From Nitrospinaceae bacterium (GTDB taxonomy: Bacteria > Nitrospinota > Nitrospinia > Nitrospinales > Nitrospinaceae), in NCBI GenBank assembly GCA_965237905.1, contig OZ250172.1, positions 832,001 to 896,000 of the forward strand: a stretch of DNA of 64,000 bases, given 5' to 3'. Shown piece by piece: positions 49,853-60,976 of the stretch (the first letter of the stretch is position 1; every line of letters begins with the position of its first letter). The notes beneath the pieces were generated by a model that had not been told where the DNA came from, searched no databases, and saw only the letters and a program-made list of their open reading frames with translations. The position numbers were made by a program, and so were the translations under genes.

Positions 49853-51391
49853 TCAATTTTGCTTTTCGGGTAGCTCTACAATATATAAAGTACCCTTCCC
49901 TAAAGAGCTCTTTACCACAATTTTTCCGTGGTGGCGCGTCACTACTTTCAAACATATCGCCAACCCCATCCCGGTACCGGGGAATTCCGAGGTCCCATGA
50001 AGACGCTCAAAGGGTTTAAAAATGCGTTTAATATGTTCCTCTTTCATTCCAATGCCATTATCACGGATTAAAATCTTCCAATATCCATTATCGTTGTAAA
50101 TGCTATCAATCTCTATCTTAGGCGGTTCAGTTTTGTTGTGAAATTTTAAGGCATTGCTGATTAAATTTTGAAACAACTGCCGCATTTGGGTTTTGTCCGC
50201 TTCAATTTTTGGAAGATGTTTTATTTCAATTACTCCCTTTGATCGTTCAATACTCACTTCGAGATCAAGAAGCACCTCATTGACGACCTCCTTCAAATCA
50301 GCAGGTCCCATTTCCGGAGGTAAAGAAGAGATTCTCGAATATCGAAGGAGATCTTCGATAAGCTTTTGCATTCTAACGGAAGAGTTTTCTAATCGATGAA
50401 AGTATTCTTTTTCTTTACTATCCAACTTATCTCCCATAGAAGTTCGCAATCGATCACTAAATGAAATAATTTTCCGCACAGGCTCTTGCAGATCGTGAGA
50501 TGCTGTGCGGGTAAAATCTTCTAAATTTTGATTGGCCTCAGCCAAATCCTTGACTAGATTTTGAAGCATTTCTTCGATTTCTCTTCTTTTTGTTATGTCC
50601 TCTATGAATAGTATGAAGTACAGGGGCTCACCGGATGGCGAAGAAACTGGTGAAATCGTAACGTTCACCCAAACCGGAAGACCATCTTTTCGCAGGTATT
50701 GAGTTTCCCGGGGAAAATATTGGACATTTGCCGTTAAAAGTTCATCAATCATCTTTCGGGTATTAGGGACTTCATCCGGATGGCTAATATCAAAAACGGA
50801 TATCTTTAGTAATTCCTCTTGCTCATAACCAACGATTTGGCAAAATTTATTATTGCATGTGAGCCACTCTCCCTTTAAAGACAAGTGAGCAATACCTATT
50901 GCCGCTTGATTAAAAGAAGCTTTAATCTGCTGTTCGATTTCACTTAAGGTCCCTTGCATCACCTGCTTTTCTTTAACCAGGCGAATCTGCTCAAAACCTC
51001 TACGCAGCGTCGCCAACAATTCTCCCGGATTGACCGGCTTCCTGAGGTAGTCATAGGCTCCATTATTAAGGGCTTGGACAGCTGTCTCTACAGACCCAAA
51101 CCCCGTGACCATGACACATAGAATATTGGGCTGTATCTTTTTTAACTTGGGAAGCAACTCAATCCCGTTGTCCTGGCCCAAACGGATATCAATCAATGCC
51201 AAATCCACAGCATTCTTTCCAATAGACTCCAGCGCTTCTTCCTCACTATGGGCCAACAACGGCTTGTAATTCTCGTTCTCAAGAATTAGCTTCAAACTGG
51301 TTGCAAAATCCAGATCATCGTCAATGATCAGAATTTGACAGTCCGAATGGTTAGCGTTTGAAATCTTTGTTTCTTCCAGCATGTCACTCAT
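49853..51391 (-). CDS. Hybrid REC-PAS-histidine kinase
   Basis: REC (IIDDD, LIDIRL, LRKP), PAS/PAC, ASHDLQEP, QNLISNALKF and GTGMGLAI. Confidence 0.92.
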   Translation of the reverse strand: MSDMLEETKISNANHSDCQILIIDDDLDFATSLKLILENENYKPLLAHSEEEALESIGKNAVDLALIDIRLGQDNGIELLPKLKKIQPNILCVMVTGFGSVETAVQALNNGAYDYLRKPVNPGELLATLRRGFEQIRLVKEKQVMQGTLSEIEQQIKASFNQAAIGIAHLSLKGEWLTCNNKFCQIVGYEQEELLKISVFDISHPDEVPNTRKMIDELLTANVQYFPRETQYLRKDGLPVWVNVTISPVSSPSGEPLYFILFIEDITKRREIEEMLQNLVKDLAEANQNLEDFTRTASHDLQEPVRKIISFSDRLRTSMGDKLDSKEKEYFHRLENSSVRMQKLIEDLLRYSRISSLPPEMGPADLKEVVNEVLLDLEVSIERSKGVIEIKHLPKIEADKTQMRQLFQNLISNALKFHNKTEPPKIEIDSIYNDNGYWKILIRDNGIGMKEEHIKRIFKPFERLHGTSEFPGTGMGLAICLKVVTRHHGKIVVKSSLGKGTLYIVELPEKQN

Positions 51392-51467
51392 TTCCTTTTT
51401 CGCAGGCCGCCATAAAGCGACCTTTGTTCCTATCTATCTTGATGGAGGCGGCTTTTTACCGTCAGCC

Positions 51468-51920
51468 TCATATCTCTTTGTTCTGGTCTCCAGCCTGCTT
51501 TTCTCTGGCCCGGCGAATTTTTTCACAACCTCTATTTAATGAAACTATCAGTTCTTCAGGGTTGACAGGTTTCCTGAGGTAGTCATAAGCTCCATATTTA
51601 AGAGCTTGGATGGCAGTCTCCATGGACCCAAACCCCGTGACCATGACACACAGAATACCGGGCTGTATCTTTTTTAACTTAAAAAGCAAATCAATCCCAT
51701 TGTCCTTGCCCAACCGGATATCAATTAATGCCAAATCCACAGCATTATTTTCAATAGACTCCAATGCTTCTTCCTCACTGTGGGCCAACAACGGTTGGTA
51801 ATTCGCATTCTCGAGAATTAGCTTCAAGCTGGCCGCAAAATCCAGATCATCGTCAATGATCAGAATTCGATAATCCGACCGGCTGGCATTTGAAATCTTT
51901 TCTTCCGGCATGTCACTCAT
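51468..51920 (-). CDS. Stand-alone receiver-domain protein (repeat copy 2)
   Basis: REC motifs; near-identical to 51998-52441. Confidence 0.9.
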   Translation of the reverse strand: MSDMPEEKISNASRSDYRILIIDDDLDFAASLKLILENANYQPLLAHSEEEALESIENNAVDLALIDIRLGKDNGIDLLFKLKKIQPGILCVMVTGFGSMETAIQALKYGAYDYLRKPVNPEELIVSLNRGCEKIRRAREKQAGDQNKEI

Positions 51921-51997
51921 TTCCTTTTTTAGTAGACCGCTATAAAGTAACTCTCATTCCTATCTATCTTAATGGGAACAACTTTTTACCGTCAGCC

Positions 51998-52441
51998 TCA
52001 TATCTCTTTGCTCTGGTCTCCAGCTTGCCTTTCTTTAACCAGGCGAATCTTTTCAAAACCTCTGCGTAGCGTCGCCAACAATTCTCCCGGATTGAGCGGT
52101 TTCCTGAGGTAATCATAGGCTCCATTTCTAAGGGCTTGGACGGCTGTCTCCATGGACCCGAACCCCGTGACCATGACACATAGAATATTAGGCTGGATCT
52201 CTTTTAACTTAAGAAGCAAATCAACTCCATTATCCTGGCCCAAACGGATATCAATCAATGCCAAATCCACAACATTCCTCTCAATCGACTCCAACGCTTC
52301 TTCCTCGCTATAGGCCAACAACGGCTTGTAATTCTCGTTCTCAAGAATTAGCTTTAAACTGGCTGCAAAATCCAGATCATCGTCGATGATCAGAATTCGA
52401 TAATCCGACCGGCTGGCATTTGAAATCTTTTCTTCCAACAT
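51998..52441 (-). CDS. Stand-alone receiver-domain protein (repeat copy 1)
   Basis: IIDDD, LIDIRL, VTGFG and YLRKP motifs. Confidence 0.9.
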   Translation of the reverse strand: MLEEKISNASRSDYRILIIDDDLDFAASLKLILENENYKPLLAYSEEEALESIERNVVDLALIDIRLGQDNGVDLLLKLKEIQPNILCVMVTGFGSMETAVQALRNGAYDYLRKPLNPGELLATLRRGFEKIRLVKERQAGDQSKEI

Positions 52442-52445
52442 ATCA

Positions 52446-53933
52446 TCAACTCCCTTTTTTCATGGGCAGCCATAAAGTAACTTTTGTCCTTATGCCGACT
52501 TGACTATCGATGTCAATCCCGCCTAAATGTTGTTCCATGATTCCTTTTACAATTGGCAGACCCAGTCCAACCCCAAAACTTTTTGTGCTGTACAACGGTT
52601 CATAAATTTTCTCTAAACTTGCCTGTGGTATTCCTTCACCGCTATCGGTAATGACCACTTCCACTCTATCTTGATCGACGCGACTTTCTATCGTCAGTCT
52701 CATATCTTTTTGCTCTGACTGCTCTGGTTTTTTACCGGGTTTGACTTTAGTCATAGCCTGAATTCCATTTTGGATAACATTGATAACAGCCCGGCGAAAA
52801 CTTTCATTGTCGATATAAACAACGGCCTGTGACTTTAAGTTTGTTGTGACAGTCATTGCTTCAGGTATGGATTGTTCATCAATCAACTCATTTAGCCACG
52901 GGTCCATCTTAACAGGCTCAAGGCTTTTTTCCTGAAGCCGGGTAAAATCCAAAAGCTCCTCAATAATATGGTCACAGCGAACCACGTTTCTTTCAATCCT
53001 GTCTAACTCGGGTTCCAGAGCGTAGTTGTTTTTACTGACCAATTGCTTGATATTAAAAATAGTATTGCGAATTGTTCCCAAAGGGTTCCGAATTTCGTGA
53101 CTTACCATCGCAGACAGGGTGCCCATAACCGCCAGTTTTTCCTTACTCACAAGTTCCTTTTGAGCCGCCTCCAGCTCTCTGGTTCGCTCATTAACTAATT
53201 CTTCAAGGTTAGAACGGTATTGAGCCAATGTTTGATCTCTACTCTGAATTTGCGTCAGCATTTCGTTAAATCCGGTGTATAGAACCCCCAGCTCATCCTT
53301 CCCCTCATAAGTCGCCCTTAACGAATAGTCCGTGAGCTGGGATACTTTTTGAGCCGTTTGAGCTAAAGATAATATAGGCTCCGAGATAAACCTTTGCAAT
53401 AGAACGGAAAGAGGGATAGAAACTAATAAAATGATGGAGAAAATTCCAACCACCAATATCAATTGGTTTTCAATCTTGGCTTCCATTTCATTTAAATTTG
53501 CTTTGATATAAATCTTTCCCAAGACTTCGTCTTCCAAAACAATATTTTTAATAATTTCAATCCCTCGTTTCGTAATCTCTTGTCCTTCATGGTCGAACGG
53601 TGGCGGTCCGAATTGTGCGTTTTTATTCCTGGAATAGGTCGCAAAAATCTGGCCATCTGTTAAATAAATGACGGCAAAGTCAATCTGCTTTTCATCCTCC
53701 AAAGAGGAAAGAATCCTTCTCCCTGTCCTTGCGTCCTCAAAAAGAATGGCCGCTCGACTCATGGATCCAATGGCCGACGCAAGCACTGAGAGACTTTCCA
53801 CTATATTCGTTTTCAGGGTCTTGATATCGTTATAGACTAATATACTCCCTTGCAAAAGCAACGTAAACGTCACCAACGCAACCAGCAACAGGACCAACTT
53901 CCTTTTAATGGAATAGGCGCTAAAAGGTTTCAC
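52446..53933 (-). CDS. Membrane sensor histidine kinase (periplasmic sensor, HAMP)
   Basis: Two TMs, DELGVLYTGFNEML HAMP, VSHEIRNPL and GVGLGL. Confidence 0.92.
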   Translation of the reverse strand: MKPFSAYSIKRKLVLLLVALVTFTLLLQGSILVYNDIKTLKTNIVESLSVLASAIGSMSRAAILFEDARTGRRILSSLEDEKQIDFAVIYLTDGQIFATYSRNKNAQFGPPPFDHEGQEITKRGIEIIKNIVLEDEVLGKIYIKANLNEMEAKIENQLILVVGIFSIILLVSIPLSVLLQRFISEPILSLAQTAQKVSQLTDYSLRATYEGKDELGVLYTGFNEMLTQIQSRDQTLAQYRSNLEELVNERTRELEAAQKELVSKEKLAVMGTLSAMVSHEIRNPLGTIRNTIFNIKQLVSKNNYALEPELDRIERNVVRCDHIIEELLDFTRLQEKSLEPVKMDPWLNELIDEQSIPEAMTVTTNLKSQAVVYIDNESFRRAVINVIQNGIQAMTKVKPGKKPEQSEQKDMRLTIESRVDQDRVEVVITDSGEGIPQASLEKIYEPLYSTKSFGVGLGLPIVKGIMEQHLGGIDIDSQVGIRTKVTLWLPMKKGS

Positions 53934-54592
53934 TGGCAGGCCCCTCCCCGAACAAGGGTTGCCAGGTCCAACAGCTCGGAGCTCGCCTTGAATCTCTTAG
54001 CATCCAAACATTGCTTGTTGATCTCAAGTTTGACCCTGTTTTCAACCACCAGGAGATTAATGTCTATTCCCCGCTCGGCAAAACCTTCCGTATCCCCAAC
54101 GGTTAGAATTGGAAGAGCTTTTGTTTGCCTGACAATTCGCTCAACATCGAATCTTTCAGAAAAACTGACAAAAAGAATATCGCATCCCTGAAAATCACTT
54201 CGGGATACATCGAGTTCGATTTCCAGAGGATGTTCTTTAGAGCGGTGCTTTTTCTCAAGACGGTGCAGAATAGAGCCAAAGGGGTTGTCTCCTACAACGC
54301 AAATTTTATATTCATTGTTATTTTTGTAAACATCTGATTGGGGCGGCCATTTGACAAACCGGGTGAATTGGTAAATAAAACCCGCCTTGATCGCATAGGC
54401 CCGCGAGCTCGTTTCCTGGGCAATGGCTTGTGAAGAGAGAAGATGGCTTGATATGACAAAGGACAGCGCTAATACAAGAAAATAACCAGGGAGGGATTTG
54501 AATAATTTACGGGGAAGGGGTTTTGACATGAGATTACCATCAATTTCAGTAGACCGGTCCAATAGGTTTGTTCCTGGGTAATTTTCTGTCAA
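53930..54592 (-). CDS. YfiR/DUF4154-family periplasmic protein
   Basis: IKAGFIYQFTRFVKWP, ICVVGDNPF, CDILFVS, ILTVGD and SSELLDLA; start may be 54529. Confidence 0.88.
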   Translation of the reverse strand: MTENYPGTNLLDRSTEIDGNLMSKPLPRKLFKSLPGYFLVLALSFVISSHLLSSQAIAQETSSRAYAIKAGFIYQFTRFVKWPPQSDVYKNNNEYKICVVGDNPFGSILHRLEKKHRSKEHPLEIELDVSRSDFQGCDILFVSFSERFDVERIVRQTKALPILTVGDTEGFAERGIDINLLVVENRVKLEINKQCLDAKRFKASSELLDLATLVRGGACQ

Positions 54593-54672: not shown

Positions 54673-57003
54673 CTAAAACTTAAGGGTGGCCTTCAGGTAA
54701 TAACTGCGCTGGGTTTCCGATTCCACTTCAAGCAACTCATTGAGTTCCGGATGAGACGGATCCAGTAAATTCTGGGCGACAAAAGACAGGTCGACATCTT
54801 TCATGGGCTGCCAGCCCAAACGCACATCCAACCGGCCGTATTCTGGAATGGACCGAGACTTGTTTTTACTCACATAATAATAAAAAGTATCCAGCTCTAA
54901 ATTGTAGGGCAGGTTAAGGTAAGAACGGATATTAAAAATATGGCTCGGCTCCCCTTCGGCCTCCAGATCCCCTTCGGTGTTGAAAGCATTCGGATCAATG
55001 ACAGCATTGGGTAAGGTATGAAGTTGAATCTCAGCGAATGTATAACTCCCGGAAAGCCGCCAGTTCGGAAGAATCTCCCATTGTCCGCTCAATTCCACAC
55101 CGTAAACTTCACCCTCCAAAGAATTATCATTAAGAATGGGGATAATGTCGTGAAAGCCTGTTGGAACCGGTGGGCCGGGTTGGAAAAACAAGGGCGTCCC
55201 GTTGTTAAGCTCAATGAGGTTGTCGTAATCGAAATAATAGGCGGTGATATCAAAATTCAATTTTTTACTGGCTTTCAACCGGTAACCCAACTCGTAAGCC
55301 AGCAACACTTCCGCATCCGTCCGGCCATCATTGTTTTCTTGAATTAGTGTTGGATTTCCGGTACCAAAGACACCCGGTGCAGGAATGAGGATTCGATTAA
55401 CCCTGAAATCCTCTTCCGAGAGATTCGGTAATCGAACCGCCCGGGAGAAGGCCGCCCATACCGTGTGATCCGGATGCGGGTTCCAGGCCGTGCGGACACT
55501 GGGTTGGAATTCAAATCCGGTAAAAACATTATACTCAACCTTGGTTCCTAAAATCAGGCTTAATTCATCGGGAATCAATTGAATTTCATCATGCAAAAAC
55601 AGGCTCGCCAGATGACTCTCCTGCCTCGAAATTTGAACAATATTTGATGGCTCCCGGTCGAAGTGTACATACCGGTAATTCAAACCCCAGGAGAAATTAT
55701 GACTCTTTTGAAATGTTTGAAATGCAAGATTGTGCTGAAATTCGATGTCGTACTGGTCAACAACCGTGTCAGTAGGAATTCCTGATTTCCGTTTTAAGCG
55801 ATCGTAATAAAGCTGTAGTTGATAAGAAGAGGAATCATCCAGGGTGCGATTCCACCGAGTCAGGAAATTGGCGCCTTCCTGAATCTGGGTACCTTGGAAT
55901 GGAGTCGACCCGGCCGATAAAGAAACAAACCGGCTGGTGAAGTCCAGATCGGCATTCAACCGGTAATAATCGCCCTGCAGGGTGAGAAGGTCCTGCTTGT
56001 TGATCTGCCAATCGGATCTAAACCCTCCCTGGCCTATTTGCTTGTCATCAAAAGAGTCACTTCCATCAGGGTTTTTACCGTCATCCCGGTTTCTGTATTT
56101 GCCATACACCCGGTAATTGAGTTCATTTTTCAGTTTTCCATCCACCATTTTTCCACCCAGTTTTCCACCATAGCGTAGCGTGCCAAATCCTTCTTCTTCG
56201 GTACCCACTCCTCCCGCAACCAATCCGCCCTGGGTTTCCCCGGCGCTTTTGGTGATAATATTGATCACCCCGGCTACCGCGTTAGAACCCCAGAGCGCCG
56301 CTCCCGGACCGCGGATCACTTCAATCCGATCGATATCTTCCAAAACCGTGTCCTGGCCAATCCAAAAAACACCCGAACTTACCGGGCTGTAAATGGATCG
56401 TCCATCCATCAGAACGAGCAGTTTATCCGAACCCAGCCGCCGGTTGAATCCCCGGATGGAAATGGCGTATCGGTTTTGATTGATTTTAGAAACCAACACC
56501 CCGGGCACCATGCGCAGGGCTTCCATAATGTTGACGGCGCCCGATCTGCGGATATCCTCACCCGTCACCACATAGATTGCGGAAGCCGCCTTGTGAACCA
56601 GTTCCGGCCTTTTATTGACGATGGTGGTAGTGAGATCCACTTGCATACGCCCCAGTCCTTGAAGACTTATTTCTCCTCCAAGAGCTTTTTCTTCGTCAGG
56701 GGATAATTTCTCTTCATCTGAAAAAACCGGGCTGGGACCAATGAAAGCCAGGAAAATAATAAAACCACTCAAACAAATGATTCGGAAATCGGATGGTTTC
56801 AAATTCCAGAAGCTTGCGGAAATATTCTGTCTGGGATTTTCAGAGGGAGGGGATGTTGGCTTTTGTTTTTTTTGTGAGTGGACCCGACAAGGGCCACCTT
56901 GTAAAGCCAGCCTGCGAGCGCTTTTAAAAATTCTACCCAATTCGAGAAAATCTTTAATTCCAGTCATCCGAGCCTGACCTTTTGAATGATTGATTTTCTC
57001 CAT
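54673..57003 (-). CDS. TonB-dependent receptor
   Basis: Plug motifs EALRMVPGV, LVLMDGR and DIDRIEVIRGPGAALWGSNAVAGVINIITK; C-terminal QNLLD...LKF; start uncertain. Confidence 0.93.
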   Translation of the reverse strand: MEKINHSKGQARMTGIKDFLELGRIFKSARRLALQGGPCRVHSQKKQKPTSPPSENPRQNISASFWNLKPSDFRIICLSGFIIFLAFIGPSPVFSDEEKLSPDEEKALGGEISLQGLGRMQVDLTTTIVNKRPELVHKAASAIYVVTGEDIRRSGAVNIMEALRMVPGVLVSKINQNRYAISIRGFNRRLGSDKLLVLMDGRSIYSPVSSGVFWIGQDTVLEDIDRIEVIRGPGAALWGSNAVAGVINIITKSAGETQGGLVAGGVGTEEEGFGTLRYGGKLGGKMVDGKLKNELNYRVYGKYRNRDDGKNPDGSDSFDDKQIGQGGFRSDWQINKQDLLTLQGDYYRLNADLDFTSRFVSLSAGSTPFQGTQIQEGANFLTRWNRTLDDSSSYQLQLYYDRLKRKSGIPTDTVVDQYDIEFQHNLAFQTFQKSHNFSWGLNYRYVHFDREPSNIVQISRQESHLASLFLHDEIQLIPDELSLILGTKVEYNVFTGFEFQPSVRTAWNPHPDHTVWAAFSRAVRLPNLSEEDFRVNRILIPAPGVFGTGNPTLIQENNDGRTDAEVLLAYELGYRLKASKKLNFDITAYYFDYDNLIELNNGTPLFFQPGPPVPTGFHDIIPILNDNSLEGEVYGVELSGQWEILPNWRLSGSYTFAEIQLHTLPNAVIDPNAFNTEGDLEAEGEPSHIFNIRSYLNLPYNLELDTFYYYVSKNKSRSIPEYGRLDVRLGWQPMKDVDLSFVAQNLLDPSHPELNELLEVESETQRSYYLKATLKF

Positions 57004-57344
57004 TTCCCAAGGTATTGAGGAAATTGGAGTTGGTTTGATTGTTTTACATTATCTTTCTGAATAAATTTATTATAAGGATTGAACCTGCCTTTTAAAAGGA
57101 TAAAAAGGGCTAAATCAACAATTTTTCTCAAAACCGATATTATATTTACACCGATGCCTATATCTTATTATAAATAAAGCCTTTATTGGATATCGGAAAA
57201 ATAGAGTTACAATTACACTTTTTTGTAGACAAAGATTTCTATTTTTGATACAAAGGTGGAAATTCGACTTACCGTAATTGTGGTGCTTTTCCCAGATAGG
57301 CTCTTTTTACCAAGTATTTTAACTTTAAAATAGAGGGGGAAATT

Positions 57345-57530
57345 ATGGTCCATAAAAACTTTCAAGAAGCCATTGAGCAACTTTCTACAAATGAAGATGT
57401 GAATTCCGAAGAAATCAAAAACCAATTCGGTTTGAATGAGGAAGATATGCGGGCCATGAATTCCGATACCCTCATTCAGGGTGCAACTCAACCAGCACCT
57501 GTGTGGTGTTTGTTCCTGTTGTTAAAGTGA
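57345..57530 (+). CDS. RiPP precursor peptide (acidic helical leader); Cys-rich core lies in the +1 frame
   Basis: GAGGGGG RBS; 61-aa ORF directly upstream of the YcaO genes; +1 frame 57502-57525 reads CGVCSCC*. Confidence 0.75.
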   Translation: MVHKNFQEAIEQLSTNEDVNSEEIKNQFGLNEEDMRAMNSDTLIQGATQPAPVWCLFLLLK

Positions 57531-57551
57531 CACTAACGAAAAGTTTTAATG

Positions 57552-57589
57552 AAAAAGGCATTACTCAAATTTGAGTAATGCCTTTTTTT
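57552..57589 (+). terminator. Strong hairpin/terminator between the precursor and the modification genes
   Basis: aaaaaggcattactcaa-at-ttgagtaatgccttttt perfect inverted repeat with T-run. Confidence 0.85.
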
Positions 57590-57668
57590 ATTTCTAAAAA
57601 ATAATCGAAAATCGATGTTTGATATTCGATAATCATTTTCCAAAGGCAATTGGAAGGAATCAGGGATC

Positions 57669-58748
57669 ATGACTAATCCAGGGATCATGGCTGAAGATAC
57701 CTCGGTAACGGTAGATTACGTCACCGTTCCACTACCCAGAAAACCTCGATTGGCTCCCTGGGTTACTTTAGTGGATCTGGGTGACAATCGCATGCAATTG
57801 CGTGGGGCGGAGTTTTCTTTTACCTTACAGCATCCCTTGTTCATTGAAACCTTCCAATCCGTCCACCCCTTGCTGGACGGTCAGCGCACCGTCGAGGAAA
57901 TCGTCGCTTCCCGCGACCCCAAATATCTGCCCACCACGATTACTTTTTTGCTCAAAATGTTGCGCGCCAACGGTGTTTTGCAGGAAGGAGTGGTTTCCCC
58001 TCCGCCGCCACTGGCTCCGGAAAATCTTAAAGAAAATGAAAACATGGTCCAGTTCTTTTCTCATTTTGTGCTGGATCCGGTGGGCACACTGGCTCTTCTG
58101 CATCAAGCGCGGGTGGCCTTGATCGGTTCCGATTCGATAACAAGCCGGGTTCGCAAGGGTCTCCTGAGCATGGGTTTTGGCTCCCTGGTAGCAATTGAGG
58201 GCCTCAGCAAAAAGACTGCGTATGATCCGTCCCAACTGCATAAGGAAGTCACCGGCCAACTGAAAGAAGTGGATTTCCTCATCGCCTGCCAGGATACAGC
58301 GGATTACCGGTTCTTTCAGACCCTGAACACGGTTTGCCTCGAAACCCAAACCCGCTGGATGCATGTCGCTATTTCCGGAACCAAAGGCCTCATGGGACCC
58401 ACGATCGTACCCCATCAGTCGGCCTGTTATGTCTGTTACGACAAACGAATGGCTTCCAATGCATCGGAACTTCAAGGTTATCTGGCCTACCAAAAACAAA
58501 CTGAACCCTCTAAAAGCGAAGGGTTCTTAAGCCCCTTATGGTCGACCCTGGCGGAGCAGGTCACTTTGGAAGTGGCGCGGATTATTTCGGGATTTGCGCC
58601 GCCCAAAACGATCGGGCGGCTCTATGAGTTTGAGGCGACGACTCCTGTGGTAGAAGGACACGATGTCCTGCGACTACCGCGTTGCCCCGCCTGCAATTTA
58701 AAAGAACCGAAGCGCGAGGCGTGGGATCTGCTCTCATTAAACCAATGA
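57669..58748 (+). CDS. TOMM leader-peptide-binding protein (RRE + ThiF/E1-like YcaO partner)
   Basis: LLDGQRTVEEI...LRANGVL RRE-like segment; MGPTIVPHQSACYVC and HDVLRLPRCPAC motifs. Confidence 0.85.
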   Translation: MTNPGIMAEDTSVTVDYVTVPLPRKPRLAPWVTLVDLGDNRMQLRGAEFSFTLQHPLFIETFQSVHPLLDGQRTVEEIVASRDPKYLPTTITFLLKMLRANGVLQEGVVSPPPPLAPENLKENENMVQFFSHFVLDPVGTLALLHQARVALIGSDSITSRVRKGLLSMGFGSLVAIEGLSKKTAYDPSQLHKEVTGQLKEVDFLIACQDTADYRFFQTLNTVCLETQTRWMHVAISGTKGLMGPTIVPHQSACYVCYDKRMASNASELQGYLAYQKQTEPSKSEGFLSPLWSTLAEQVTLEVARIISGFAPPKTIGRLYEFEATTPVVEGHDVLRLPRCPACNLKEPKREAWDLLSLNQ

Positions 58749-60124
58749 TCGCCTTGAACAATGCTCACCTGTCTCTCAACAACCTGCAAAATGGCTCTCC
58801 CCGAACCCTGTCCGATGCTATCCAAGCCTCCAAAAAATTAATCAGCAAGCGCACCGGTATTATTTCAACGGTGGAATTTGAAAATTTGGCATCCGGCGAG
58901 CCGTCGTTCTATTTAGCTCGAAGTACTCCTGCAAGCAATATCGCCTTAAATGGGATGGAAACGATGAATCAAGGAACTGCCGCCTCTATCGATCCCAAAC
59001 GAGCCATTATGAAATCGGTGGGAGAAAGTATCGAACGGTATTGCCCTGCCCATTTCAAATACGAAGATTTTGTTTTAGCTACTTACAGCGATTTAGACTG
59101 CGAAGCCGTTCACCCGGCGGATTTTGCGCTTTTCAGCGAAAAACAGTATGCCGAGCCCGATTTTCCTTACTCCCGGCTGACGGCATCCACACCTTTGCGT
59201 TGGGTTTCAGCTTATTCTTTAAGCCATGATCGGCCTATCCTGGTTCCAGCCTCCTTTGTTTATATTCCCTATCATTTTGATCCGTTGTATGAAACTTCCT
59301 CTCACAACCCCATTTCAACGGGATTGGCCTGCGGCTCCAATCTGGCGCCGGCTATTTACAAGGGGATCCTTGAAGTCATTGAACGGGATGCCTTCATGAT
59401 CATGTGGCAAAATCAATTGCCCTGCTCAAGAATAGACCTCTCCACTGTCAACGACCCTTTTATTCAATCCATGCTAAATGAGTTGGAAGTGCTACCACTT
59501 GAGTGTGAGGCTTTTCTCATCCCGTCGGATATCGAAGTCCCTGTGGTTATGGTGCTACTCAGAGGCATTTCAGGCCATCTCCCTCATACGGTAGTTGGAG
59601 TATCAGCAGACCTGAATCCCAACAAAGCCCTCACATTGGCCCTGGAAGAAGTGAGTCTGGGTTGGGTGGGAATGGGACGGCATGCTTTGTCTCAAAAAGA
59701 TTATCAACCCTCAGAGAATTACCAAAATGTCAATACCGTAATCCTTCATGGAATAGCCCATGCGGTGGACCCGGATCTCGGCAAGTCTTTGGAATTCATC
59801 AATGCCTCTGGCAAGCCGATTGCCATTCAAGACATACAAAACAGATATGATGAAAATATGGTAAATAATGTACGGCACCTGGTAAATAAGCTGGATGAAA
59901 AAAATTTAAATGTGGTCGTTAAAGACCTGACCACAATCGACGTGGATGAAGTGGGATTCAAAGTGGTCCGTGTAGTGGTGCCCGGGATGCAGCCCCTGGA
60001 TGTCAAACATGCGTACAGATATTTGGGAGGAACCCGGCTCTATGAAGTTCCCTGCCAAATGGGACTGAGAAGCCATCCTCTCACTGAAGAAGAGGTCAAC
60101 CCTTATCCACATATATTTCCTTAA
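58745..60124 (+). CDS. YcaO cyclodehydratase (azoline-forming type)
   Basis: KSVGESIERY, STGLACG, LEVIERDA, RVVVPG and C-terminal Pro-rich NPYPHIFP; ATGA overlap with the partner gene. Confidence 0.93.
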   Translation: MIALNNAHLSLNNLQNGSPRTLSDAIQASKKLISKRTGIISTVEFENLASGEPSFYLARSTPASNIALNGMETMNQGTAASIDPKRAIMKSVGESIERYCPAHFKYEDFVLATYSDLDCEAVHPADFALFSEKQYAEPDFPYSRLTASTPLRWVSAYSLSHDRPILVPASFVYIPYHFDPLYETSSHNPISTGLACGSNLAPAIYKGILEVIERDAFMIMWQNQLPCSRIDLSTVNDPFIQSMLNELEVLPLECEAFLIPSDIEVPVVMVLLRGISGHLPHTVVGVSADLNPNKALTLALEEVSLGWVGMGRHALSQKDYQPSENYQNVNTVILHGIAHAVDPDLGKSLEFINASGKPIAIQDIQNRYDENMVNNVRHLVNKLDEKNLNVVVKDLTTIDVDEVGFKVVRVVVPGMQPLDVKHAYRYLGGTRLYEVPCQMGLRSHPLTEEEVNPYPHIFP

Positions 60125-60142
60125 TCGTAAAGAGATTGGGCC

Positions 60143-60976
60143 ATGTCAAAAATAAGAGCAAATACAGTCCCGGCTTTGGAATCCCAACTGGATCCGCCAC
60201 CTCTTTCCCTGTCCGAGCTTTACCACGAAAACACCAAGTTACATCCCCTGACCGCTCAGGATCTAGGGATAGCACCTTTGAGTGATTTTTCCGCCGCCGA
60301 CCTGCAAGCCATGTCAAGGGCCTACAAACAATATCCCAACGCACCGCGCGTCAAGTTGCCTGCCATTGAAGGCATTCCTCAAAACGGCCGCACGTTTGAT
60401 GAGGTAATTTCATCCCGGAGAAGCTTACGGGATTTTGCCGATCTGGATTTAGACCTGGATGATTTGTCCAAGATCCTGCACCAAAGTTATGGGATCACCG
60501 GAGAAGTTCCAAGCAACAGGGGATTCCGCCAGGATTTGAGATCCGCTCCCTCGGCGGGAGCCCTCTACCCGGCTGAAATCTATATTGCCGTCCGGAAAGT
60601 TGCCGATGTCGAGCCTGGAATCTATCATTACAATGTGCCGAATCATGAACTGGAATTAATGATGCCGGGCGACCCCACCGAAAAAATCCACGAAGTTTGT
60701 GTTGGGCAAGAACATGTTCTTAAGTCCTCTGTCGTGGTTCTGATCTCCGGAGTCCTGGAGCGGATCAAACTCAAGTATGGCGAACGTGGGTACCGCTATG
60801 TCTTACTCGATATTGGACATCTCGGCCAGAATATTTATCTCGCCTGCACCTCTTTGGACCTGGCCGTCATGACCACCTGCGGCTTTTTTGACGACGAAGC
60901 CAATAAACTCCTGCGCATCGATGGAGTGGACGAAACCGCCATGTACGTGGCCTTCATCGGAAAACGGCAAGCCTAG
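60143..60976 (+). CDS. SagB/ThcOx-family FMN-dependent azoline dehydrogenase
   Basis: RRSLRDF, RSAPSAGALYP and KYGERGYRYVLLDIGHLGQN motifs. Confidence 0.92.
   Translation: MSKIRANTVPALESQLDPPPLSLSELYHENTKLHPLTAQDLGIAPLSDFSAADLQAMSRAYKQYPNAPRVKLPAIEGIPQNGRTFDEVISSRRSLRDFADLDLDLDDLSKILHQSYGITGEVPSNRGFRQDLRSAPSAGALYPAEIYIAVRKVADVEPGIYHYNVPNHELELMMPGDPTEKIHEVCVGQEHVLKSSVVVLISGVLERIKLKYGERGYRYVLLDIGHLGQNIYLACTSLDLAVMTTCGFFDDEANKLLRIDGVDETAMYVAFIGKRQA

Follow-up and report, generated by a model that had tools for sequence, protein, structure and literature searches.

An azole-peptide gene cluster linked to a TonB receptor-YfiR-kinase relay in Nitrospinales, and a frameshifted precursor allele in one strain

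The DNA considered here is a 64,000-nt stretch (the window, in which all coordinates given without a prefix are positions) of contig OZ250172.1, from the 3.09-Mb genome of a Nitrospinaceae bacterium (assembly GCA_965237905.1). At 57345-60976 it carries a cluster for a ribosomally made, post-translationally modified peptide (RiPP) of the azole type. The link of this cluster to a relay made of a TonB-dependent receptor, a YfiR-like protein and a sensor kinase is tight and previously undescribed. In addition, the precursor gene of the window is a frameshifted allele, whose Cys core is out of frame. These data suggest, with a probability of about one half, a polythiazole signal peptide sensed through the receptor-YfiR-kinase relay, in a strain that likely cannot make the peptide. 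The initial annotation had described the enzyme trio, the leader and the missing exporter, all of which stand; it overlooked the frameshift in the precursor and the receptor, YfiR-like and kinase genes upstream.

The azole-forming cluster and its frameshifted precursor

The cluster comprises the following features.

57226..57254, + strand: candidate promoter (TAGACA, 17 nt, -10-like hexamer), with a TTACA direct repeat just upstream
57345..57530, + strand: precursor gene, frameshifted allele; Os1348/NHLP-clan-like leader at about residues 1-50, then an out-of-frame tail
57496..57509, + strand: frameshift interval, with one base more than in related strains, as deduced below
57502..57531, + strand: Cys-rich core of the family type, read in the +1 frame as CGVCSCC, a stop and SD, the last being the remnant of a QSDN follower; Cys core proper at 57502-57525
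57551..57588, + strand: intrinsic-terminator-like hairpin between the precursor and enzyme genes
57669..58748, + strand: C protein, with an N-terminal domain like a RiPP recognition element (RRE) and an E1/ThiF-like domain, two CxxC motifs
58745..60124, + strand: YcaO cyclodehydratase (D), Pro-rich C-terminus; TIGR03604
60143..60976, + strand: SagB-type FMN azoline dehydrogenase (B), KYGERGYR motif; TIGR03605

The window precursor ORF (open reading frame) ends in PAPVWCLFLLLK, its tail WCLFLLLK holding a single Cys and neither Ser nor Thr. In the +1 frame, the same letters read CGVCSCC followed by a stop (TAA) and by SD, what is left of a QSDN follower. Homologues found with the window's own peptide all end in Cys runs (15/15), many with a QSDN follower. 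Because a query without a core cannot select for a core, these tails are not an artefact of the search. Among the 24 cluster precursors of the phylum, a Cys-rich core (CC[CTS]C-like) is in frame in 23, the sole exception being that of the window. When all searches are pooled, a Cys cluster is found in 96 of 103 small proteins, most of them found by a core-containing profile. Such an arrangement is rare in the genome, where at least four Cys within seven residues before a stop occur at 10 of 149,673 stops, and the X-bridged profile score of the precursor peaks at codons 53-55. The tails of two precursor proteins from the searches, P0041 and P0066, diverge from those of near-identical relatives, which could be decay or sequencing error.

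The frameshift cannot be put down to an assembly error in the dominant form, as contigs assembled from this sample in two runs, at depths of 204 and 266, are identical to the window, with no indel. A run from another study agrees with the window through 57516, at depth 2 and with fewer than 31 letters past the site, so we do not take it as bridging the site. Runs listed as containing the locus included none of RNA, which says nothing about expression. The site is crossed by three contigs of related strains, at low depth and in two runs from other studies, and these seem to have one base fewer within 57496-57509; this one-base difference is deduced from a depth dip of 13/14 in two runs and from one contig whose 147 letters align to 148 places, leaving 1 gap. 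A two-base slip in a short TG repeat was also considered; the contigs of related strains favour one extra base. Two forms of recoding were discarded, selenocysteine read-through of the TGA and a role of the hairpin as a recoding element: the Cys core is in a different frame and is closed by a TAA that comes before that codon, and a hairpin with a T-run also follows in-frame precursors. No second precursor copy was found in the genome; a weak leader-like match at 2815730-2816053 (E 0.18) has no adjacent modifying genes.

The rest of the unit is intact. With three genus-mates, dN/dS (the ratio of non-synonymous to synonymous substitution rates) is 0.12-0.18 for the enzymes (0.10-0.16 among the relatives themselves), 0.15-0.17 for the receptor and 0.06-0.11 for the kinase. 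Since none of these genes is broken and their dN/dS resembles that among the relatives, the lesion looks recent. A leader and enzymes that look intact and under purifying selection would also suit an unbroken gene, with the Cys core restored by a programmed +1 shift or with the hydrophobic WCLFLLLK tail as a new functional core. We regard this as very improbable: none of the other 23 cluster precursors is out of frame, related strains seem to have one base fewer at the site, the former stop and what remains of the follower can still be read in the +1 frame, and the present tail offers one Cys and no Ser or Thr. Thus the strain likely cannot make the modified peptide, the window copy being most likely mute. 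It follows that the co-expression proposed in the initial annotation has to be corrected, the window's own ORF being the wrong substrate since it lacks the family core.

The azole-RiPP cluster itself is real. The elements first read from the letters were all recovered: the small acidic ORF (61 residues) upstream of the trio, the hairpin (a 17-pair stem plus T-run) between precursor and enzymes, the overlapping C and YcaO genes, whose start and stop share ATGA, the Pro-rich C-terminus of YcaO ending in NPYPHIFP, and the SagB-type gene after it. Precursor, C, D and B genes are each single-copy in the genome. The assignment of the trio to azole formation is borne out by matches over the curated cut-offs for the C protein (TIGR03882, 55 bits, cut-off 36.9), YcaO (TIGR03604, 311 bits, cut-off 219) and SagB (TIGR03605, 144 bits, cut-off 78). 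The best matches by sequence and by fold are LynD/TruD (structural match of the C protein, E 8e-18), and the nearest solved relatives of the C, D and B proteins are LynD/TruD/MusD and the cyanobactin oxidases. In the AlphaFold model of the C protein (pLDDT 73), the N-terminus is made of three strands and three helices, which we take to be the RRE layout. The KYGERGYR motif of SagB recurs in 23 of 24 other cluster loci, the lone miss being a contig that ends before the gene. A search of plasmids with the C protein gave 16 distant matches, all below 30% identity. In one genome (G019; L034:7691-9012) the YcaO gene is apparently split, which could reflect decay or sequencing error.

The precursor family is unclassified and of the Os1348 clan. 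Its leader had been described as helical, NHLP-clan-like and outside every family recognised as characterised, and this description holds: by sequence the likeness to Os1348/NHLP leaders appears to be at clan level, and no curated family claims the peptide. NF038399 (Os1348) matches 9 of 22 precursor members (best E 1.8e-6), all under its cut-off of 40 bits, the best scores being 28 bits among Nitrospinota members and 35.7 for a distant poly-Cys relative. The best leader score with TIGR03793 (NHLP) is 17.8 bits against a cut-off of 50.9. The leader is predicted to form three helices (model pLDDT 64). Its predicted-structure neighbours include Os1348-family and Frankia-peptide clusters (TM about 0.6) as well as LigA-domain clusters, a fold search with the precursor model returned nothing at E <= 0.001, and profile matches in the PDB are weak (SonA/LigA-domain proteins and nitrile hydratase alpha chains, E 0.01-0.1). 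Gly-Gly is found within the last 35 residues of 3 of 24 precursors, never adjoining the core, so that the cleavage motif of NHLP leaders is not seen.

More distant relatives exist. Among 1.84 billion representatives scanned with HMMER, 62 matched at E <= 0.001, including distant helical leaders with poly-Cys tails; proteins P0044-P0077 are such wider Os1348-clan leaders from outside Nitrospinota, one of them named as from Variovorax. At one distant poly-Cys locus (L121:6291-7593), the same type of C protein lies beside the precursor. A metagenome scan with the distant poly-Cys precursor yielded a single true relative, L121, among 25 loci; the remaining leader-profile matches were Cys-poor leader-like proteins without azole enzymes.

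The hairpin was also examined among relatives. The 211-nt region around it folds at z = -5.0, and the hairpin is kept in 5/5 aligned loci of the window's genus while weak or absent in most other genera. The TTACA direct repeat upstream of the candidate promoter is likewise kept within the genus. A T[AG]GAC[AT] motif, picked by eye from the same sequences, occurs in 19 of 24 upstream regions versus 18% of shuffles.

Linkage to one clade of TonB receptors

The conserved unit is larger than the cluster first delimited, since it adds a TonB receptor, a YfiR-like gene and a sensor kinase gene upstream. These neighbours and the genes next to them are as follows.

54673..57003, - strand: TonB-dependent receptor, TOL_0244-like (563 bits, cut-off 645), in the clade that tracks the cluster
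53930..54592, - strand: YfiR-like (DUF4154) periplasmic protein
52446..53933, - strand: YfiR-associated type of sensor histidine kinase (NF053592, 187 bits against a cut-off of 194)
49853..52441, - strand: two stand-alone receivers and a receiver-PAS-kinase, likely relay outputs; arrangement seen in the window's genus

The three relay genes are adjacent, and their best matches are each slightly under the cut-offs (TOL_0244, 563/645 bits; TOL_0243, 106/125; NF053592, 187/194). The receptor carries Plug and barrel domains, and the N-terminal part of the kinase matches DgcN/YfiN (E 6e-24). Output modules beside the relay differ between genera. In the window, the three receiver domains of 49853-52441 (two stand-alone, one fused to PAS and kinase) are in tandem and closely similar, apparently through local duplication.

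The distribution of the unit was surveyed in 120 Nitrospinota genomes. Many of the non-carriers are incomplete, so that absence is weaker evidence there, and Fisher tests of co-occurrence were not relied on because kin are not independent. Precursor homologues and the C protein co-occur in the same 22 genomes, in 24 clusters. Receptor scores show a gap: 23 genomes contain 32 genes that reach 664 bits or higher, and the next 65 matches score 552 bits or less. The 23 genomes are the 22 cluster carriers plus G028, whose receptor lies less than 600 bases from a contig end; a clade receptor is thus found in 1 of the 98 genomes without the cluster. In a tree of 57 receptors (a quick IQ-TREE search), the high-scoring ones form one clade (33 rows, SH-aLRT 100).

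This clade receptor lies within about 3 kb of the cluster in 24/24 cases, head-to-head with it in 23. The exception is a second cluster in G051 (L062), which is co-directional, in the order precursor, C, D, B, receptor, YfiR, kinase. In its precursor (L062:6702-7262), which ends in CCCTCS, a stretch of about 90 residues, rich in Lys and resembling histone H1, precedes the leader; an internal start may be the real one. A YfiR gene is found within 1.3 kb for 23 of 25 cluster-adjacent receptor rows. The same picture emerges from the loci of the 15 relatives, all with a TonB receptor head-to-head with the precursor, mostly followed by the YfiR-like gene and the sensor kinase; downstream of SagB, no gene is conserved beyond a genus in these loci. 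Around out-group receptors, 24 of the 65 listed being tested, neither a C protein nor a leader-like ORF was found in the loci examined. In the present genome, a second TonB receptor-YfiR pair at G000:C1:1802937-1805553 (L069) lies outside the clade and has no peptide genes nearby. In G031 (L029:3118-5229), a receptor is apparently split, which could be decay or sequencing error.

G020, a single closed contig (96% complete), has neither cluster nor clade receptor, whereas its three genus-mates have both. The enzyme tree and that of RpoB have 12 of 14 supported splits in common; therefore the module is old and was often lost. G070 (family f2) joins G011/G015 (f1) in both the enzyme tree and the receptor tree. 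Enzyme and receptor distances correlate at 0.86, and at 0.82 with RpoB removed.

Of 18 loci related to the cluster, 16 are named as Nitrospinaceae, Nitrospinales or Nitrospina, and two come from other metagenome-assembled genomes (MAGs). L048, an 11.5-kb contig of a gammaproteobacterial MAG, holds a full receptor-linked cluster closest to those of G070/G011/G015, by transfer or mis-binning. L053, from an actinomycete MAG, has a related C/D/B trio together with genes for a TauD-like dioxygenase and a RiPP radical-SAM methyltransferase and with two ORFs that resemble leaders; in the assembly, the leader ORF adjacent to the trio lacks a Cys core.

One account would be that of an ordinary antibacterial linear azol(in)e-containing peptide (LAP), the receptor being a neighbour merely co-inherited. 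The enzyme trio is indeed that of microcin B17/streptolysin-type clusters (PMC2887384), inheritance is mostly vertical, and one homologue weakly matches a streptolysin S model (E 0.005). This account is nevertheless improbable. Cluster and receptor clade are jointly absent in 97 of the 98 other genomes, and the linkage survives a rearrangement and duplicated copies. The initial annotation had already noted that no protease, exporter or immunity gene stands in the cluster, and none is conserved beside it in the 15 relatives' loci; its view that the product may not be a classical bacteriocin is retained as probable, no cognate exporter or immunity gene having been found.

A possible signal and other roles for the peptide

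The mechanism that we propose would begin with the known chemistry of thiazole/oxazole-modified microcins (TOMMs), in which cyclodehydration of the core by C and D is followed by oxidation through B (PMC2887384). The C protein would bind the leader, YcaO would cyclodehydrate Cys, Thr and Ser (-18 Da each) and SagB would oxidise the rings (-2 Da each), so that the short Cys-rich core may become three to five adjacent thiazole/oxazole rings. The hairpin may favour the precursor over the enzyme message. The peptide would then leave the cell and bind the neighbouring TonB receptor which, standing in the place of YfiB, could shift YfiR off the kinase. YfiR-YfiN[PAS] has indeed been presented as a sensing core of modular build, whose inputs vary and whose outputs include kinases (PMC3375315). 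A role of the receptor as input, with the peptide as ligand, is suggested by several facts: both are kept, lost, duplicated and rearranged together, cores differ by genus, and paralogous receptors carry another peptide.

This other peptide was found among the eight clade receptors without azole enzymes. For two of them, in G040 and G050 (one genus), an ORF of 75-82 residues lies just upstream and ends in PP(F/W)(Y/H)WPG.

L058:7008-7232 (G040) and L057:7252-7497 (G050): second peptide type, beside paralogous clade receptors, no azole enzymes

One member matches the leader profile (E 4e-4), the two align at 42%, and they have no Cys. At strong E-values this type is found in 2 of 120 genomes only. 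A small HExxH-motif protein is encoded just upstream of it in L057 (6576-7094). Genus-specific cores and the second peptide type at paralogous receptors could represent dialects, and the present strain would retain intact enzymes and an intact receptor relay after a recent loss of its signal. A wider proposal, that Nitrospinales use polythiazole peptides as cell-to-cell signals in genus dialects, with a Cys-free class on paralogous receptors, and that this strain is signal-mute while still listening, is put forward more tentatively, as possible rather than probable.

Several observations weigh against the peptide being a signal. The NHLP peptidase-transporter TIGR03796 is over its cut-off in only 1 of 120 genomes (1 of 22 carriers), TldD was not found in this genome, the only C39 match is a 317-residue stand-alone protein, and Gly-Gly near the core is limited to 3/24 precursors. 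Two CPBP-family proteases are encoded elsewhere in the genome, with no link to the cluster shown. Azole chemistry does not need the receptor, because L121, which has precursor and C protein with no receptor in 6.3 kb upstream, and the actinomycete cluster L053 lack it. No recognisable peptide is found near six of the eight extra clade receptors. Physical linkage alone could explain the correlated enzyme and receptor trees, and the head-to-head order equally fits a relay that regulates the cluster. We know of no ligand of TOL_0244-type receptors. Finally, contigs hide rare alleles, and an intact minority may exist in the sample.

Because no export route was found, two other roles stay alive. 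In the first, the peptide is a metallophore for Cu, Zn or Fe that is released, loaded with metal and retaken by the receptor, the YfiR-kinase relay reporting uptake. TonB receptors typically import chelates, and cell-surface signalling reports uptake for siderophores and methanobactin. The receptor here has the Plug and barrel domains, adjacent thiazoles would offer N/S donors, and the same co-occurrence of cluster and receptor applies. However, the neighbourhood has no conserved ABC uptake system or binding protein, cores and followers differ by genus, the second peptide type has no Cys, and the export gap applies equally. Moreover, Fur-box matches reach only 11-13 of 19 positions at best in all 23 upstream regions, a weak result, as the Fur boxes of this phylum may differ from the consensus used. 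Taken together, a metallophore appears unlikely.

In the second role, which we hold to be distinctly unlikely, the peptide stays inside the cell, bound to its leader, for instance as a thiazole-tailed metal or oxidant buffer, and the relay senses some other ligand outside and switches the cluster on through the intergenic region that they share. In favour of this are the lack of any exporter or protease that tracks the cluster, the head-to-head arrangement with the relay in 23/24 clusters, the TTACA direct repeat before the candidate promoter in the window's genus and the Lys-rich N-terminal extension of one precursor (L062). On the other hand, one cluster has a single orientation with the relay downstream, a different peptide lies beside two paralogous receptors, and relay output modules differ between genera while the link with the peptide persists.

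Comparison with known systems

Nitrospinales are major marine nitrite oxidisers. No RiPP was found described for them in the literature searched, which left out supplementary cluster tables that possibly list such loci; likewise, no paper with both Nitrospina and YcaO was found, supplements and most subscription papers lying outside the coverage. For the combination of YfiR, TonB receptor and kinase, only an unrelated match was returned, and ligands and input side were not found described. The module names a testable candidate ligand, receptor and relay, with natural controls in strains that lack the whole unit and in this strain, where only the core is out of frame. If the signal reading is true, the module would be a Gram-negative equivalent of quorum sensing by peptides and would provide the first ligand for TOL_0244-type receptors, and in this strain nature would have made a mutant that has lost its signal but can still listen. 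The agr and ComQXPA systems and methanobactin MbnIRT similarly encode a modified ribosomal peptide next to the sensor or receptor that serves it, in variants specific to a lineage; they differ from the present module in its Gram-negative outer-membrane receptor, YfiR coupling and azole chemistry, and in that no cognate exporter was found for it.

With regard to the relay, YfiBNR of Pseudomonas aeruginosa, as described in the part of the source that could be consulted, also has a YfiR-like periplasmic protein beside a YfiN-like membrane sensor, variants with kinase outputs being known (PMC3375315). Here, however, the TonB receptor stands at the place of YfiB, and that same part describes no peptide ligand for YfiBNR; the term TonB has 0 occurrences in the main text of the paper.

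With regard to the enzymes, C, D and B over their curated cut-offs and the top matches to LynD/TruD recall SagBCD/McbBCD and LynD/TruD as far as the available text presents them (PMC2887384). Unlike these TOMM/LAP clusters, the present one has no exporter, immunity gene or leader peptidase, and its precursor falls outside every LAP model. The Os1348/Franean1_4349 precursors (NF038399, PF14407) share the short three-helix leader, in the portion of the source available (PMC7726476). The Os17 cluster as presented there comprises a GNAT, an HExxH protein and a SagB-domain protein, with no SagC/SagD homologue in that portion, unlike the C/D/B trio found here (PMC7726476).

The closest parallel for the core is probably srp, from sponge-derived proteusins: in the accessible part of the sources, the SrpE core LCCCW is converted to three thiazolines, with SrpC as YcaO and SrpI as brominase (PMC10286304; bioRxiv 10.1101/2023.06.09.544420). 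As in srp, where the YcaO makes adjacent thiazolines, an NHLP-type leader precedes a short Cys run, and some homologues in the present family read LCCCCW or LCSCCW before the follower. Compared with srp, the leader is shorter here (about 50 residues), under the cut-off of the NHLP model and mostly without Gly-Gly near the core. The C and D genes are separate, a follower comes after the core and the link to TonB receptor, YfiR and kinase is fixed. No halogenase is conserved in the core cluster, so that the pairing of a terminal-Trp core with a brominase is not found.

Other genes with possible tailoring functions occur sporadically. A GNAT acetyltransferase gene follows SagB in L029-L031 (for example L030:9896-10417), in genus g9 only, and could serve extra tailoring or self-protection. 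Near clade receptors, a halogenase/LodB-like flavoprotein is encoded only at L054:1890-3101 (G010) and L031:1327-3547 (G034), accompanied in G034 by a methyltransferase; it may be a tailoring enzyme like that of srp.

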